Of a stretch of 21,779 nucleotides of DNA, positions 5,906 to 20,509 are shown in pieces. Source of the stretch: Craspedostauros australis (taxonomy: Eukaryota). The notes under the pieces are model-generated. The model searched no databases, was not told where the DNA came from, and saw only the letters and a program-made list of their open reading frames with translations. The stretch covers positions 62,001 to 83,779 of the forward strand of contig JALAGF010003172.1 in the NCBI GenBank assembly GCA_030167865.1, in the 5' to 3' direction. The stretch's first letter is position 1. Each line of letters starts with the position of its first letter. The position numbers and the translations under genes are program-made.

Positions 5906-6691
5906 GGGCATGTTGGTCGAGCAGTTAGGCAGTGTCAGGATGGTCGCGAGTGTGTAAGGTTGAGAGCAAACGCATCCAGATTAGAGCGAGGTGATTACGC
6001 ATACATTCGCACAATTCTAGTGTAATAACGCATCATGCAATGGAACAATATAAACTAAATTCTTGCTTTCTATCCAATAATGGTACTCTCCAGAGAGGAA
6101 GTGTTGGTAACAGGTCGTCCATGCAGAAAGAGCCCAGAAGCGGAATTGAGGCTTGGGCAGATTGATTCGTGTTTCAACAAGTCACGATAGGTACGAGGGA
6201 TCCTTTGAGTCCCGTAAACGCACTCTCAATCACGATCCACATCAACGCGAACAACGGCTCCTCCGGAACGGTGTTGCAGATTCCGGAGGAGCCAGAGGAA
6301 TTGCAACAGGTTGCAGTGTCCAGACACAACACAAGAGAAGGAAGATGGCTGTTAGGTTCCTCTCCTTTTGATGGGATAGTGCTTTGATGCAGATGCCCAA
6401 CAAAGGCGATCGAGTGCTGGTTGAGAGGCGATGGCATCAATGGAGATGACAATCTCCGGCGTTTCTGTTTCGTCGCTCAGGAATTGCGCTTCTGCGTGTG
6501 CTCCGCTCACACTCACAATGACAACTTGATGGGATGAAGAGGCGTCAAGATACAAGAGCACCGTGTCACATGTGATGACAACGCTCCTGTCCACCCGCAC
6601 ATACGAGCACAAACGAGTCGAGGAGAGAGTATTATACGAAGTTACTGGGACAGCTATTAGCCATAGCTCGTACTCAACGAATACAAACATC

Positions 6692-8699
6692 ATGCACAGC
6701 TACGGCAGCACCAACGCGCCCAACGATGACAGCCCTGCGCATTCGGATCGCGACTATCTGTTCCACGCCAGCTCCAGCATGGAGACTTATGGCGACGACG
6801 ACGTGCCGTCCGTCGGCAGAAGCGTGTCGCTGAGTCGTTTCGGGTACCCTTCGAGTCTGCGCATCCAGCACGACCTGCGAACAGCATCCACAGTCGGTGC
6901 GCTCCTCGTCTTCCTGCTGCTCGTGCTGGGCTTCGTGCAGCATAACAGCAGCAACGGTGATGTTACGAATGTGGACCAACCGGATCTGCTCCCCATATGG
7001 ACGCCGTTGCTGCGAGAGGCCATGCCACGAGCAGATTCAGTTGAAAAGCACTACGAACATCAGCTTGTGGACCATTTTGCTGCAGACCAGACTGAGCACA
7101 CCGCCGTGTTTTCGCAACGGTACTACGAATCCGAGCGTTTCTTCCAAGGTCCTGGGCATCCATTCCTCGTCATTGTTGGTGGACAGCATTCCAATGACAA
7201 AGGGCTGAGCATTCCCTTCGTGGCGGAATATCTGGCCAGCATCCTCAACGCCTACGTTCTGCAACCAGAGCATCGGTTCTATGGAAAATCCTGGCCGGTC
7301 CAGCATGTGTCACAGCAAGACGTCCACTCCAGCGACATCAACAAAGACATTGACAGCGATGGCAGTAATGATTTTCCGTCTTCGGATCGGCTAAGGCAGC
7401 TTCAAAGCCCTCATCAGACAATGGCGGACCTTGCTCAGATCGTTCAGCACATGCAGGAAGAGCATGGCTGCAGCCTCGATCCATCCAGCAAAGACTACTG
7501 CCCCGTCATTGCCGTGGGCGGTGGCATGTCGGGAGTGCTTGCTACCATGATGCGGTTGACGTATCCGAACGTTGTGGACATCGCTTACGCGTCATCCGCA
7601 CCGTTAAAACTACATACACATTATGTAAACACGCATGCGTACTTTGAAAAGATCACGCAAGTGGCAGAATCGGCGTCGTCCGGATGCTCCAATGCCGTCC
7701 ATCAGACGCTGCTGGACATCTCGGGTGCGCTTCGCGTCAACGACGACCAAGAGCCAAACTATGTCGATCTCTCTTCGAGGTTGGGCATCTGCGCTGACAC
7801 CATGCCATCACATATCCAATCATCCGTCGTGTTCCAGCAAGAGTTGGTCATGAATATCGCAAATAGGTTTGCAAAATGCAACATGGAGTACTACCCACCA
7901 GGTCCAGAGACGTCTCTTGTGGCAGCGTGCAATATCTTTCAAGATTCTACGATGTCGGCGGAAGGCAAGATCGCGTCCTACCTCATGGCCCCGAACGGCG
8001 ATGAGAGTCAGTGCTTCGATTTGTCATCGTTCGTGCGATCTAGACCGCATTCCACCTTGTCCGCAGACAACCATGAAGAGATCGGGCGCGGTCTTTCCCA
8101 AGACATTTGGGACTTGCAGGTACGTTGATCGATGGGTCATTCGGCTCTTGTCTGCCCCACTTACATGGCAACGATCTCCGTCATTCTCACACTTGATTTC
8201 CTCTTTGTTTTTTCTTGAACCTGTCACGACTCCCCTTATCTACGTGCTGCTCAATGCCACTATGCTCTCGCATTCTGCTGTTTGCCCCGCGAAGATATGC
8301 GACCTGCTCACGAATCCAGCGACGGTGACAGACGCTTCCATGTTCCCTGTGCAAGAATACAGCGACGAGTGGCTGGACCAGCACTGCCATTCCCGATCTG
8401 ACTCTGCATCGCACATCCAAGATCTGATGCATGACATCGGCGTAGATGACTTGGCGCAGCTCAGCACAACCAGGATGCTTGTCGTCAATGGCATGAACGA
8501 TGGGTGGTCCATGGCGTCGCAGTTGGAAACGCAGGTTGATTTGCGCGTGGTCAACATCCCAAGCGGCGCGCATCATAGCGAATTGTCACAAACGGGGCCG
8601 TTCGAGAATGACACATTGGACATGCAGGGGGCGTACACTCAGATTGCGCGACATTTACTCGATCTCGTGCGCGTGGCGATGGCAGAACGCAGTGTGTAG
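6692..8699 (+). CDS. Peptidase S28 (prolylcarboxypeptidase/DPP-II-like) homologue, membrane-anchored; exons 6692-8119 and 8295-8699 (~610 aa)
   Basis: S28 motifs QLVDHF, FSQRYY, EHRFYGKS, ADLA, YPNVVDIAYASSAP, NGMNDGW, GAHHSEL. N-terminal TM segment. Splicing joins WDLQ to ICDLL in frame. Confidence 0.85.
8120..8294 (+). other. Spliceosomal intron (175 nt) in the S28 gene
   Basis: CAG|GTACGT donor, pyrimidine-rich body, AAG|ATA acceptor. Removal restores the frame between the two S28-like ORFs. The exact acceptor is inferred. Confidence 0.7.
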
Positions 8700-9028
8700 C
8701 ATGATGTTCGATGATTGTTTCTGCAGGGAGCGGAAACAGAAGCTGGTGTTGGGAGAATAATTAAAGTACAGCACAGCACAGCACAGTACGAAAGAGAAGA
8801 GCAGTGTTCATGCGTGAGTAGACACAGTTCATAACGAACGACGACCACTTAATCCTTGCGGCAAGCCGATTTACTCTATGTTGCTCAAAGAGTGTGGTGG
8901 CGATAGGTCCCTCGCCTGAAGCTGGGCCTGCGGAAGCGCCAGCATCAAGAGGAAACCAGAATTGGGCAAAAACAGAGAAATGGGACGAAAAGATGAGCAA
9001 AAAGGGCTGATTCCTGCTCTTTTGGAGT

Positions 9029-9033
9029 AAAAA
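9029..9033 (-). terminator. RNA polymerase III terminator (T5)
   Basis: TTTTT 4 nt after the 5' half of the permuted tRNA on the minus strand. Confidence 0.65.
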
Positions 9034-9037
9034 GAGT

Positions 9038-9115
9038 CTGCAATCGAACGCTCTACCACTGAGCTATACTGACCTAGAGAGTCAACAACGTGAGTCGAAC
9101 ACGTGACCATTCGAA
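9038..9115 (-). tRNA. trnC-GCA: Circularly permuted tRNA-Cys(GCA): 3' half 9115-9080, linker CTCTAG, 5' half 9073-9038
   Basis: The halves reassemble into a full cloverleaf: acceptor GTCAGTA/TGTTGAC, D-arm GCTC/GAGC, anticodon stem TTCGA/TCGAA with GCA (9041-9039), T-arm ACGTG-TTCGACT-CACGT, and U73 discriminator (Cys identity). Confidence 0.88.
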
Positions 9116-9146
9116 TACTGCTTCGCTGACGTGCTGAGCGAAAAAC

Positions 9147-9153
9147 ATATTTA
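9147..9153 (-). promoter_or_regulatory. TATA-like element upstream of the permuted tRNA
   Basis: TAAATAT begins 38 nt upstream of the 3' half. A similarly placed AT-rich box lies at the other copy. Confidence 0.4.
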
Positions 9154-9349
9154 TGAACTCTTGAATTGGTGCTGCTGCACAACAACAAATCTTCATTTGT
9201 TCTGCCCCAACCCAACAGGCATTCCCGATCCACCCATCCACCCACCACACATGCTCATTCAGTGGCAGCCAGCACACTTCACAAAGAGAGCGCGAGGGAA
9301 CTCAACAGCAGCATCCAATAGCATCCATGATGAAAGCAACAAAGATTGC

Positions 9350-10927: not shown

Positions 10928-12910
10928 TCACTCCTCTTCTTCAGCAGAGCTGTCCGTCTCAATCGCTTTGGATGATTTGGTACTCATTGAGCGGACGAAG
11001 TCCACCAATGTCGCCCAATCCATGTATGAATCCACGTTTGCTGTACTCTCATCCTCATCTTTAACCTTGTGCAGCTTCATCATGGACATGTGACTGTACT
11101 CATCATCAATACCATCACTCTCCGCTCCCCCACTGCGGAGGACATGAATGCCTCCCATCAGTTGGGGTTGTAGAATCAGCTTGCTGAAATCTGGATGAGC
11201 GAACATATCTTTCTCACTTTCAGCTGCCATTCTCATTGCTGCATCCTTCAACACCACGCAGTTGTGTTGATGGGCGAATATCAATGCATCTATCATGATG
11301 TCCTCTGTGAGATGCTTGCGGGCCAACTCTGCTTCAAGAACAAGCTTGAGCCGCCAGAAGCCGAATTCGTTGGCCACAAGGATCAGCTGTTGCAGATCGT
11401 GCCGTCTATTGAGGGCGGGAGTTGGCTGGTGAGAGGCATCTGCATCGCGGTGAGCGTCGACAATAGCGCCGATGTGAGCAGCAGTGTTGTCACGAGCGCT
11501 GTCATCAAATGATATCTCACCTGTGTAGATGCATTGGGGGACGTATCGGACGTGTTTTGGTTGAAGGTTGGGAAGAGGGATGGTTGTTTGGATGGGTTCA
11601 GTTCTATCTTGAGCGCCATCGTGAGCGCATTGATGTTGGATTCCTTTGTCGATCAGCGTCTCAATGGATGGGACGGTGATCATGAGGACTCCGGAGTTTG
11701 CCTTGATTGGTTGCTGTTCGTCGTCCTGTCCACACAAGAAGATGGTGTCTGTCCTGTTCCCAGTTTAGAAGGATTTGAGTCGGTCTTCTCCAATGCTGGC
11801 GTTGGTCCTCTTGTGGCTGCTGTGTTTGTGTTCATTCTCTTGGCTCTTTCGCTTCAACTGGTGTCTCGACTGTTGTTGCAAATGTTCAATCTCTTGTTCC
11901 TTCAGCTTCAACTGCTGTCCCAACTGTTGTTTCAGTTGTTCATTCTCTTGTTCCTTCTGTTTCAACTGCTGCCGCAGTTGTGAGTTGCGATAACTCAGAT
12001 CATCGAGACGGTTTATCATCTTGATATTAAATGTTGCATCGACCAAATCGAGGGGCGTTTTGTTGTCGTTGTTTTTGATGTCGATATTAGCATTGGCTGA
12101 TGCAATGAGGTACTCGACACACTCCAGCGTGTTGTTGTTGCATGCACAATGAAGGGGAGTGGAACCATTGTTGTTTTGACAGTTCACTTTCGCCTCACAT
12201 GAATCGATGAGGTACTCCACACTCCTCAGCTGGCCACACAAGCATGTGTGATGAAGGGGAGTGTCACCAGAGTTGTCTTTGCAGTTGATGTCCGCCCCAC
12301 ATAATTCGATGAGGTACTTCACACACTCCAGGCGGCCGTTCCAGCATGTGTGATGAAGGGGAGTGCAACCGTCGTTGTTTTGGCAGTTGATGTTTGCCCC
12401 ACATGATTTGATGAGGTACTTCACACACTCCAGGCAGCCTTCCATGCATGCCCGATGAAGGGGAGTGTTTCCATTGTTATCTTCACAGTTGATATTCGCC
12501 CCACAGGATTCGATGAGGTACTTCGCACAATCCAGGTGGTCATGGTGGCATGCCGTCTGAAGGGGGGCATCACCATAGTAGTTTTGGCAGTTGATGTTCG
12601 CCTCACATGATTCGATGAGGTACTTGACACACTCCAGGTGGCCGTTGTCGCATGCCAGATGAAGGGGAGTGTCACCATGGTTGTTTTGGTAGTTGATGTT
12701 CGCCTCACATGATTCGATGAGGTACTTGACACACTCCAGGTGGCCGTTGTGGCATGCCAGACGAAGGGGAGTGCGACCAACCCAGTCTGTAACCTTGTTG
12801 ACATCAACTCTCTCAGTCTGCGTCTTGTTCTGCTTCTTCCATTCCTTCAACACCGACAAGTCACCTGCATTGGCAGCAGCAATGAGTTGTTCATTCGTAA
12901 CATTCGGCAT
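10928..12910 (-). pseudogene. Ankyrin-repeat / coiled-coil / BTB-POZ protein split by one in-frame TAA (11767-11765)
   Basis: ORFs 12910-11765 and 11737-10928 are in frame. Read-through LKSF*TGNRTDTIFLCG..PIKANSGVL starts a BTB fold, followed by LILVANEFGFWRLKLVLEAEL and ALIFAHQHNCVVLKDAAM (BTB/BACK-like). The Gln/Glu/Lys-rich segment is coiled-coil-like. Confidence 0.8.
12071..12784 (-). repeat. Seven tandem 102-bp (34-aa) ankyrin repeats
   Basis: Consensus GxTPLHxACxNGHLECVKYLIESCxANINCxNN. The units are visibly similar at DNA level. Confidence 0.92.
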
Positions 12911-13255: not shown

Positions 13256-13261
13256 TATTTA
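13256..13261 (+). promoter_or_regulatory. TATA-like element upstream of the permuted tRNA
   Basis: TATTTA begins 42 nt upstream of the 3' half. Confidence 0.4.
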
Positions 13262-13297
13262 GACCGTATTCTGCGTTATGTGGGTAGCACAGCAGTA

Positions 13298-13375
13298 TTC
13301 GAATGGTCACGTGTTCGACTCACGTTGTTGACTCCACGGGTCAATATAGCTCAGTGGTAGAGCGTTCGATTGCAG
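13298..13375 (+). tRNA. trnC-GCA: Circularly permuted tRNA-Cys(GCA): 3' half 13298-13333, linker CCACGG, 5' half 13340-13375
   Basis: Reassembled: GTCAATA TA GCTC AGTGGTA GAGC G TTCGA TTGCAG|T TCGAA TGGTC ACGTG TTCGACT CACGT TGTTGAC T. All four stems pair, the anticodon GCA is at 13372-13374, and U73 is present. The B box precedes the A box. Confidence 0.9.
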
Positions 13376-13379
13376 ATTC

Positions 13380-13384
13380 TTTTT
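13380..13384 (+). terminator. RNA polymerase III terminator (T5)
   Basis: TTTTT 4 nt after G37 of the 5' half; further T-runs follow. Confidence 0.65.
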
Positions 13385-13856
13385 ACACCAAAAGAGCAGG
13401 AATCAGTCCTTTTTGCCCATCTTTTCGTCCCATTTCTCTGGTTCTGCTCGATCCAGGCTTCATTTTGCTACTTCCAAGCAGCAATGGCAACAGCAGGAAC
13501 CGCCACAACATCGGTAATGGTGATGTCTCTTCCGCAATCGGCGCTGATGGGCCATTCTCCCCAGATGCACCACACACAAGTGGAGATGAGGATGAACCTG
13601 GCGTCCGGATCAGCAATAGTAACGAAATCTTGTGCTGAAACTCTTAACCAATCTCATGTTTGCAGCTTCGTCGATGAGAGGTGATTCATCGTGAAGTGTT
13701 GGTACTTGGGAGCGCCAAGAGATGGATTCGCTGTCGACTATAATATTATTGTTTAGAATGGCGACTTTCCGTCAATGGCTCACAGTATGTATTTGTATGG
13801 AGTAGGCGCGTGTCCTGTCAAAATTGTTCACAACCTTCATTCCGTTCTTCCCCCGA

Positions 13857-17598: not shown

Positions 17599-18537
17599 TG
17601 TTGGAATGTGCATATGTGTATGTGCATCGCTCACCCATTGTTCTCTTACTCTATGCTCAAACAGCGCACACGTTGGTGCCATGAATGAAGCGTGACTGAG
17701 TGAGATCACATTCTGAGTTTACGTGCACCAAATTGTTCTCGATTTTGGAAGGAAATTGTTGGCGAGTTCCGTAGATGGGTACCTTGCAATCGTGGAAGAC
17801 GGTGATGGTTGTTACGATTCTGATTGCTATTTCATTACGTTGGTACTCCAATCCTCTCGGTGTCACCGTTCTCTTGCCTGATGCTCTCAGCGCGTTTCTC
17901 TGTTTTGTAGATTGAGTCTCCGACTATGAGTCGGTACGTGAGATGCTCTCTTGCTATTATTCGTATTCTCTCTCTTCTCAATGTAGCATGTTCGTGCTAC
18001 ATGACACTCCGTGTTCGATGCGTACTCTGCATTCGACACTTCGTTCATTTATTACTGGCTTCTACTGCATGAGTACTTACCACTTGAACTCCTCTTCATG
18101 TATCCATGATCTCTATGCCCTTGGGTCATCGAATCTTTACCTTCTGCTTCTGACATGGAGACAGATGTCAACGTGGTGACATGATGACATCCTGTCAACA
18201 TCAGCTGTCGTCTTTCTGCTCTCCAGATGTCACATTCCATTGATGATGCGATGGTCTGTCAGATGATATTGTCATCTGGGGTTTAGTTGGGAGGTACATC
18301 GAGCTTCGCTCGATACCATACGTTTCCATTGATGGATGGACGGACGATATTCCTGATTCTCTCAGAAATCGTTGATTGCAAATTTCCTCCAGAAATTCTG
18401 CTCATTTTTGTGTGTTCCATTTCCACTGTGATTCTGACAAATCACAGCATACTAACCACACGAGTGTAGTTTTACCGTCCGTGCATGTATAAGAGAATAA
18501 CGGGTGAACGATGCACATGTACACGTACATCTTGACA
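17599..18537. mobile_element. Non-coding element with long imperfect terminal inverted repeats and TGT...ACA ends (element A)
   Basis: Left end TGTTGGAATGTGCATATGTGTATGTGCATCGCTCACCCATTGTTCTCTTA aligns with the reverse complement of the right end, TGTCAAGATGTACGTGTACATGTGCATCGTTCACCCGTTATTCTCTTA. Flanks CACACT/TATACT may be a decayed 6-bp TSD. Confidence 0.62.
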
Positions 18538-19792: not shown

Positions 19793-19915
19793 AAACAGTG
19801 AGAGAGCATCTTGTGTACCAACTCATAGTCAGGAGACATCAGGCCAACAGGAGACCCCCAAAACCATTGGAACAAAAAAATGAAATAGCAAACAGAATCG
19901 AAACCACCTCCACCA

Positions 19916-20509
19916 TTATCTACAGTGCAAGGAATATCCATGAGCAGAGCTTGCCAACATCACCAACTGCAGCTCCAAGGAAGCCCCATCATTGTTGGGA
20001 ATAGCCAAAGCACATGGAAGGTCTTGGCCACTGGAAAATAGTGCTTGCGCCACAGTGTGCCCCACAGTTCTGGTGTCAATTGCACAGCTGCTGTTCGTGT
20101 CAAACTTGAATGGACCGTCGTGGTACACGATGAGCTCCAGCACCAAGCTGGAGTCCCTCTTGTTGAAGGCGCGAGTGGCAATAACTGACGACACCAGCTG
20201 GTTGCGGCCCAGGTTGTCTTCACCTTGTGCATTGAAGAATGGCCTTGCTGCCATCTTTGTGTTGTTGTTGGTGTTGATCATGGTGAACAACATGAAGCTG
20301 TAGATGGAGCACTTGTAATCGTTCGCAGATGATATTCTCGTGGGTACTTGCTTCGTGGTGGATGCCTCAACGTCCACTGCTTGCGCAAATGGCCACGAAC
20401 TGTGTCGATGCGGAGCACGTGGCTCCTCATCCGTGAGCAACATCACCGCGATCACGGCGATTGTGCAGGCAAATCTTCGCATCGCCATCGTCAACTTCTT
20501 CATCAGCAT
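19916..20509 (-). pseudogene. Possible decayed or truncated gene for a secreted protein
   Basis: Signal-like MRRFACTIAVIAVMLL followed by protein-like sequence (FFNAQGEDNLGRNQLVSSVIAT, LVLELIVYHDGPF). The 3' end runs into repeat B. No family recognised. Confidence 0.3.

Follow-up and report, generated by a model that had tools for sequence, protein, structure and literature searches.

Can a tRNA gene whose 3' half precedes its 5' half be a working gene, and where would its transcript be cut and joined? The question is raised by two loci in a 21,779-nt stretch of DNA (hereafter the window). An earlier note on one of them, made from the letters alone, had claimed that leader and trailer form a bulge-helix-bulge-like (BHB) splice motif at the canonical 37/38 site. 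Permuted tRNA genes are rare and have been reported from a single red alga, a handful of green algae, the nucleomorph of a chlorarachniophyte and one archaeon. Table 1 of PMC3978253 lists 34 such genes; the same paper gives 11 for Cyanidioschyzon merolae, two for the nucleomorph of Bigelowiella natans and two for Thermofilum pendens, and cites permuted Cys(GCA) genes of type II in Ostreococcus lucimarinus, O. tauri and Micromonas pusilla (Maruyama et al., 2010). The known pathway runs from a TATA-like promoter and a T-stretch terminator through BHB cleavage and a circle to RNase P and tRNase Z processing and CCA addition, and RT-PCR has demonstrated circular intermediates in both red and green algae (PMC3978253). 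Motif and mechanism are not new, because the mechanism is already established in other algae (Cyanidioschyzon, Ostreococcus and Micromonas).

Two permuted tRNA-Cys(GCA) loci in the window

Judged from the sequence, positions 13298-13375 (+) and 9115-9038 (-) were confirmed as two circularly permuted nuclear tRNA-Cys(GCA) gene copies, here called copy B and copy A, respectively. The gene order in both is 3' half (nt 38-73), 6-nt spacer, 5' half (nt 1-37). The features of copy B are as follows.

13256..13263 (+), TATA-like box TATTTAGA, -42 to -35 from nt 38; putative Pol III promoter element
13291..13297 (+), leader AGCAGTA; GCAG within it (13292-13295) supplies the leader-side strand of the central 4-bp helix H
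U13296 and A13297 (+), first two bases of a 3-nt bulge in the leader, predicted to be removed
13298..13333 (+), 3' half, nt 38-73: U38, 3' strand of the anticodon stem, variable loop, T arm, 3' strand of the acceptor stem, discriminator U73
13334..13339 (+), intervening sequence CCACGG, a 6-nt loop closing the acceptor stem; 4 of 6 positions differ from copy A
13340..13375 (+), 5' half, nt 1-37: 5' strand of the acceptor stem, D arm, 5' strand of the anticodon stem, loop bases U32 U33 G34 C35 A36 G37
13370..13373 (+), U32-C35, tRNA strand of helix H
13376..13379 (+), trailer ATTC, with A13376 as third base of the 5'-site bulge
13380..13384 (+), T5 run, putative Pol III terminator 4 nt past G37
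13376..13441 (+), 66-nt downstream block, T5 run included; 61 of 66 positions (92%) identical to the copy A block at 8972..9037 (-)

Those of copy A are listed in the same order.

9147..9154 (-), TATA-like box ATAAATAT, at about -35 to -42
9116..9122 (-), leader AGCAGTA, the same as in copy B
9080..9115 (-), 3' half, nt 38-73, identical to copy B
9074..9079 (-), intervening sequence CTCTAG
9038..9073 (-), 5' half, nt 1-37; sole difference from copy B is A5 to G5, with the pair to U68 kept
9029..9037 (-), trailer ACTC (9037-9034) and T5 run (9033-9029)
8972..9037 (-), downstream block conserved with copy B

The copies stand about 4 kb apart in inverted orientation and were detected as a 187-nt inverted repeat (88% complementary). 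The sequence holds the canonical bases U8, A14, G18G19, U33, T54-T55-C56, A58 and U73; CCA is not encoded in copy A, and the spacer of copy B happens to start with CCA. No terminator lies between the halves, and an upstream TATA-like element and a downstream T-stretch are present at both copies. When the halves were rejoined, ARAGORN called tRNA-Cys(gca) in 4 of 4 in-script constructs (two copies by two possible junctions). On the raw window ARAGORN returned 0 tRNAs, and Rfam gave 0 matches at the gathering score. A contiguous tRNA (RF00005) was rejected as an assignment, with only 21.1 bits against 29 and the real 5' half paired with unrelated downstream sequence. The model of YrlA (RF02553), a bacterial Y RNA-like RNA, aligned 13278-13391 (+) at 33.7 bits because the order T arm, acceptor-like stem, D arm of its tRNA-like module is shared with the window locus; membership was rejected, since the gathering score, 69, is not reached and the locus has a complete anticodon arm, U73, a GCA anticodon and a eukaryotic context.

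A generic permuted-tRNA scan of the window found these two loci only. A 15-mer from the D arm matched twice in 21.8 kb (0.01 expected), once per copy; a 20-mer taken from the variable loop and T arm of the 3' half likewise occurred only twice, once per copy. These counts bear on the idea that the loci are not permuted, each lying midway in a tandem series of intron-containing tRNA-Cys genes or stemming from an assembly error; such tandem repeats are the precursor of permuted genes proposed in PMC3978253. Since each half occurs exactly twice in the window, once per copy, the loci are not the middle of an array: no outer 5' half lies upstream and no outer 3' half downstream. The same order is moreover found in two contexts and opposite orientations, with a T5 terminator soon after the 5' half, and we regard this idea as one that can almost be discounted.

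The halves and the leader are kept between the copies

Upstream of the leader (-60 to -8) the copies agree at only 19 of 53 positions. Identity starts at the leader (7 of 7 from -7 to -1), as the earlier note had observed, and runs through the 3' half (36 of 36) and the 5' half (35 of 36), giving 71 of 72 mature positions; the spacer is identical at 2 of 6. Because the spacer has diverged between two faithfully kept halves, we infer that halves and leader are probably under selection and not merely recent copies. Downstream, the 66-nt block is followed by 34 nt with 22 identities. The block showed no coding signal, significant fold, Rfam family or look-alike in the metagenome loci among the matches listed, and may be a constrained downstream element, judging by its conservation. 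The two copies are related by descent and give each other no independent support.

A relaxed splice-type motif at the 37/38 junction

In both copies the bases claimed in the earlier note for a 4-bp helix were confirmed: GCAG (13292-13295 in copy B) can pair with C35, G34, U33 and U32 (13373-13370) as G-C, C-G, A-U and G.U. Unpaired on its flanks are U13296 A13297 U13298 on one side and A13374 (A36) G13375 (G37) A13376 on the other, and the 5-bp anticodon stem lies beneath. As a rule, each 3-nt bulge of BHB and anticodon-intron structures is cut after its second base. The bulges UA/U and AG/A thus agree with the cuts predicted earlier, after G37 and before U38; their geometry fits the hBH form, and conservation appears to end at the same two sites (see below).

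The outer helix is weak, as had also been stated: copy B offers a single A-U pair (A13291-U13377), copy A two pairs after an initial mismatch. A test for the strict, archaeal-type hBHBh' motif found no outer helix h' of at least 2 pairs closing the second bulge, and a test for a BHB-type junction found helix h, a 3-nt bulge and the 4-bp helix H. These results support a junction motif of the relaxed hBH form in the nomenclature of PMC3978253, where hBH at 37/38 is the junction motif of green-algal and nucleomorph type II permuted pre-tRNAs. By an arithmetic estimate, the chance of a fixed-register 4-bp match to UUGC is about 3%, so that one locus alone proves little.

Folding of the precursor, proposed in the earlier note as a check, did not single out the BHB register. 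The BHB register adds -3.1 kcal/mol beyond the cloverleaf alone; with the cloverleaf fixed, a rival 3-bp register, GUA (13295-13297) with U33-C35, gives -3.5 kcal/mol, which is 0.4 better. When four versions of the precursor were folded without constraint, the BHB register did not appear and the GUA register was obtained instead (z-scores -1.32 to +1.34). Because the rival register is slightly more stable and is the one returned by free folding, thermodynamics decides neither way.

The same design recurs in environmental loci

Metagenome contigs were scanned with a pattern consisting of T loop, 24-54-nt gap, D arm and TGCA, with leader and trailer unspecified, which yielded at least 125 matches in at least 124 loci. 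At least 64 passed a permuted-cloverleaf test (acceptor stem at least 6 of 7 pairs, anticodon stem at least 4 of 5, T stem at least 4 of 5), and the 61 that did not pass among the 125 matches listed were mostly ordinary tRNA-Cys genes just behind another tRNA. Sixty-two of the 64 carried 25 nt of leader and gave at least 47 distinct loci with at least 45 distinct mature sequences. Counts below refer to the 47 loci among the matches listed (the listed loci). The same pattern over 185,579 prokaryotic genomes gave 2 matches, neither of them permuted: one was a tandem bacterial tRNA-Cys in which the anticodon-stem and helix H pairs fail, and the other matched the pattern only partially.

Leader positions -6 to -3 were paired with nt 35-32 at 4 of 4 positions in 32 of the 47 listed loci and at 3 or more in 40, while eight other offsets gave 4 of 4 in 0-6 loci. 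At most 2 of 4 were paired in the remaining 7 of 47 listed loci, so helix H is not universal. The leaders are unrelated, and the words at this place include GCAA (16 listed loci), GCAG (7), GCGA (4), GTAA (3) and others. Position 37 is G in 44 of 47 listed loci and nt 38 is T in 37, and the adjoining bases vary: the first trailer base is A in 20, T in 18, C in 6 and G in 3, and 14 dinucleotides occur at leader -2/-1 among the listed loci. Conservation therefore ends exactly at the two predicted cut sites.

The ends of the transcript might be processed in some other manner, in the MFE register or by trimming and ligation, and not by endonuclease acting on the BHB-like motif; the MFE structure does lie in a different register, the energy gap is small and the outer helix is missing. 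We consider this very improbable indeed. The GUA-type register reaches 3 of 3 pairs in 6 of 47 listed loci, whereas in the BHB register those three bases are all paired in 35 of 47; conservation breaks off where the BHB cuts would fall; and the published pathway for such genes uses the BHB motif (PMC3978253). Cleavage at the hBH motif thus remains the preferred reading.

Putative signals for transcription recur as well. TTTT occurs within 25 nt of trailer in 39 of 47 listed loci, all 39 runs beginning no more than 14 nt past G37, and an AT-rich peak lies at -36 to -40 (0.74 against about 0.55 nearby, 47 listed loci). The spacer is 10 nt or shorter in 33 of 47 listed loci and starts with CCA in 1 of 47. 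The nearest listed loci have 64-65 of 72 mature positions in common with the window, and nt 38-65 are exact in 9 of 47. A tblastx comparison of the environmental loci with the window gave no common neighbouring genes and 2 weak matches outside the tRNA. Environmental contigs often hold two or three permuted tRNA-Cys genes near one another (L019 and L020 on one contig, L024/L025, L037/L038, L047/L048); one contig has three same-strand copies with a different leader ahead of each GCGA word.

Covariation and a covariance model

An alignment was made from 45 of the 47 listed loci, L050 and L102 being left out because they lack U73. Across the spacer, the acceptor stem was 99.7% paired, and each of its 7 pairs showed two-sided changes; the anticodon stem was 100% paired, two-sided changes occurring at 3 of its 5 pairs (45 listed loci). 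Helix H was 86.1% paired in the same listed loci, and its -3:32 pair covaries (A-U in 28, G-U in 7 and G-C in 4 of the 45). The outer helix h' was 49.4% paired, with only its first pair often kept (33 of 45 listed loci); slid controls on the 45-locus alignment were 27.6-43.4% paired. A covariance model (R1), built on the 45 loci with the window left out, gave the two copies in the window scores of 95.9 and 94.7 bits along its entire length, with no non-standard pair. The next-best R1 match in the window had 8.6 bits. Direct comparative support for the hBH register and the U38 junction thus comes from the environmental loci.

The junction base and contiguous tRNA-Cys genes

The mature loop predicted in the earlier note, U32 U33 G34 C35 A36 G37 U38, is favoured by the listed loci. 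That note had called U32/U38 atypical, which must be withdrawn for permuted genes: U32/U38 is the rule among the permuted loci (37 of 47 among the matches listed), and of the 39 distinct contiguous tRNA-Cys genes among the matches listed, 5 carry it as well. The contiguous genes more often carry C32/A38 (14 of the 39) or U32/A38 (10).

These figures bear on a variant in which the gene is permuted and functional and the junction lies one base further on, so that A38 from the trailer (A13376) replaces U13298. ARAGORN accepts both rejoined forms as tRNA-Cys, A38 is the commonest base in contiguous tRNA-Cys genes among the matches listed, and the first trailer base is A in both window copies. The base before the 39-43 strand is nevertheless T in 37 of 47 listed loci, the first trailer base is unconserved among them, and the geometry of the 3-nt bulge puts the cut before U13298. 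Contiguous tRNA-Cys genes with the same anticodon stem, loop and U38 also exist. The comparison therefore favours U38 over A38 at the predicted junction, and we judge the shifted junction very unlikely.

The contiguous genes in question (L006, L007, L012, L036 and L093) have the acceptor strand GCGCATA, and they share anticodon stem and loop with the permuted form and with the predicted product of the window. A permuted form with the same GCGCATA strand is found in L002, L005, L076 and L106, so both gene forms of nearly one tRNA exist in nature.

A contiguous tRNA-Cys gene may lie elsewhere in the genome of the window. In the available text on the Nitzschia inconspicua genome (PMC8329260), tRNAscan-SE found tRNAs for all 20 amino acids; contiguous tRNA-Cys genes may thus coexist in diatoms, which weighs against the reading that permuted genes are the only source. 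In such organisms permuted genes might supply most or all of the cytosolic tRNA-Cys, a possibility that has to be seen in this light. The same tRNA set speaks for a stronger claim, that the window loci are silent or decaying remnants and that the working tRNA-Cys comes from contiguous genes elsewhere. We think this unlikely. The 71 of 72 mature positions kept while the upstream region (19 of 53) and the spacer (2 of 6) diverged point to selection, both copies retain a perfect cloverleaf, U73, the GCA anticodon, a TATA-like box and T5, and the design recurs with compensatory changes in the 47 distinct environmental loci among the matches listed.

Proposed maturation of the transcript

Taken together, these results suggest, with a probability of roughly 0.8, that each window locus is a functional circularly permuted nuclear gene of type II (37/38) for a cytosolic tRNA-Cys(GCA). 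All steps of the pathway below are deduced from the DNA together with what has been published for other algae. Directed by the TATA-like box, RNA polymerase III would start a few bases 5' of the leader, and it would stop at T5. The transcript of about 100 nt would fold into a cloverleaf, the 6-nt spacer closing its acceptor stem and the transcript's two ends forming its anticodon stem, with GCAG of the leader paired with U32-C35. The tRNA splicing endonuclease would then cut in both 3-nt bulges, after G37 and before U38, and tRNA ligase would join G37 to U38 to give a 78-nt circle. Excision of the spacer by RNase P and tRNase Z, plus CCA addition, would follow, and the mature loop would have the seven bases given above.

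An ordinary eukaryotic pre-tRNA with a 37/38 intron has the same anticodon stem, 3-nt bulge and 4-bp helix of nt 32-35 with removed sequence, and is presumably handled by the same enzymes. It loses an internal intron, whereas the 'intron' removed from the window transcript would be its two ends; ligation would therefore give a circle, and a second pair of cuts would be needed at the acceptor stem. The anticodon loop of tRNA-Cys is near-palindromic, in that U32.G37, U33-A36 and G34-C35 can pair, and the leader's GCAG repeats the bases of nt 34-37. Helix H would thus find a ready-made partner strand in a partial copy of the loop, which may explain why Cys genes have been permuted repeatedly.

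Comparison with known permuted genes

The permuted tRNA-Cys genes of Ostreococcus and Micromonas resemble the window loci in isoacceptor, 37/38 junction, gene order and hBH motif, in a CCA that is as a rule not encoded and in an AT-rich region upstream. They differ in spacer length (26, 38 and 12 nt in O. lucimarinus, O. tauri and M. pusilla, against 6 nt in the window) and in host, which is a green alga in each case and appears diatom-like for the window. Loops differ too: C32/A38 is found in the listed environmental loci whose spacers measure 26-35 nt and which may be prasinophyte-like, against U32/U38 in the window. Cyanidioschyzon merolae shares with the window the upstream TATA-like box, the downstream T-stretch and an intervening sequence free of terminators. 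Its tRNAs mature by way of a BHB-type motif and a circular intermediate that RT-PCR has shown, the route predicted for the window as well; it has no permuted Cys gene (Table 1 of PMC3978253), whereas the window genes are for Cys; and its junctions also lie at 20/21, 50/51 and 59/60 with several BHB types, against only 37/38 hBH here. AT-rich sequence at -30 to -40 upstream of tRNA genes is described for Phaeodactylum in the available text of PMC3531208, which fits the TATA-like boxes of the window.

What is likely to be new is a host that is diatom-like, an acceptor spacer of only 6 nt (7-74 nt in the nuclear genes of Table 1, PMC3978253) and a large environmental family with the same design. 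A full-text literature search, with subscription papers and supplementary tables outside its reach, returned no permuted tRNA gene reported in a diatom or another stramenopile. A 2025 paper adds Auxenochlorella and, in its available text, names only the red alga and prasinophytes as precedents (PMC12633428); the same lineages are named in the available part of a 2026 review (PMC13578239). It is possible, though we hold it somewhat doubtful, that the window contains the first permuted tRNA gene recognised in the nuclear genome of a diatom or of any stramenopile, as a member of a large environmental tRNA-Cys family with U32/U38 and 5-10-nt spacers that is invisible to standard tRNA finders.

A diatom case would add a major, ecologically dominant lineage with secondary plastids to those known, and would mean that annotation by tRNAscan-SE, ARAGORN and Rfam can miss an essential tRNA. 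It would also offer a tractable system for tRNA maturation through a circular intermediate. The at least 45 distinct mature sequences of the environmental scan suggest a design common in nature, and the R1 model is able to find such genes in any genome. The green-algal contribution to diatom genomes is disputed; if the assignment is true, a rare gene form common to a diatom and prasinophytes bears on that dispute.

Host genes and other features of the window

The window encodes SET, Peptidase_S28, ankyrin and U-box domains, which belong to eukaryotic genes. The SET ORF has near-full-length matches at 34-48% identity with E-values down to 3.8e-153, and all organism-named matches are diatoms (Nitzschia, Cylindrotheca, Pseudo-nitzschia, Bacillariaceae sp., Mayamaea and Epithemia). 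All organism-named relatives of the S28 ORF among the 120 listed are likewise diatoms (Cylindrotheca, Bacillariaceae sp., Discostella, Pseudo-nitzschia and Thalassiosira sp.), at 30-44% identity; in a protein atlas search this ORF gave a family match only. Organism-named entries were the minority in both searches. From these relatives we infer that the window is diatom-like nuclear DNA, probably of a pennate diatom to which the database searched holds no closely related sequence. The U-box ORF adjoining copy B had 1 protein match, to a plant U-box domain over 14% of the query, and a Pfam search of 36 further window ORFs found no conserved marker gene.

The Peptidase_S28 gene (6563-8699, +) is split into two overlapping frames, 6563-8128 and 7869-8699, which suggests a short intron or a frameshift. 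Within the ORF at 11765-12910 (-), a 102-nt tandem repeat of 6 copies (12037-12846) constitutes the ankyrin-repeat array, and a 54-nt tandem repeat of 3 copies (11829-11990) lies near the 3' end. A 45-nt inverted repeat (17792-17836 and 19879-19923, 80% complementary), with its arms 2 kb apart, sits in an AT-richer part of the window without long ORFs.
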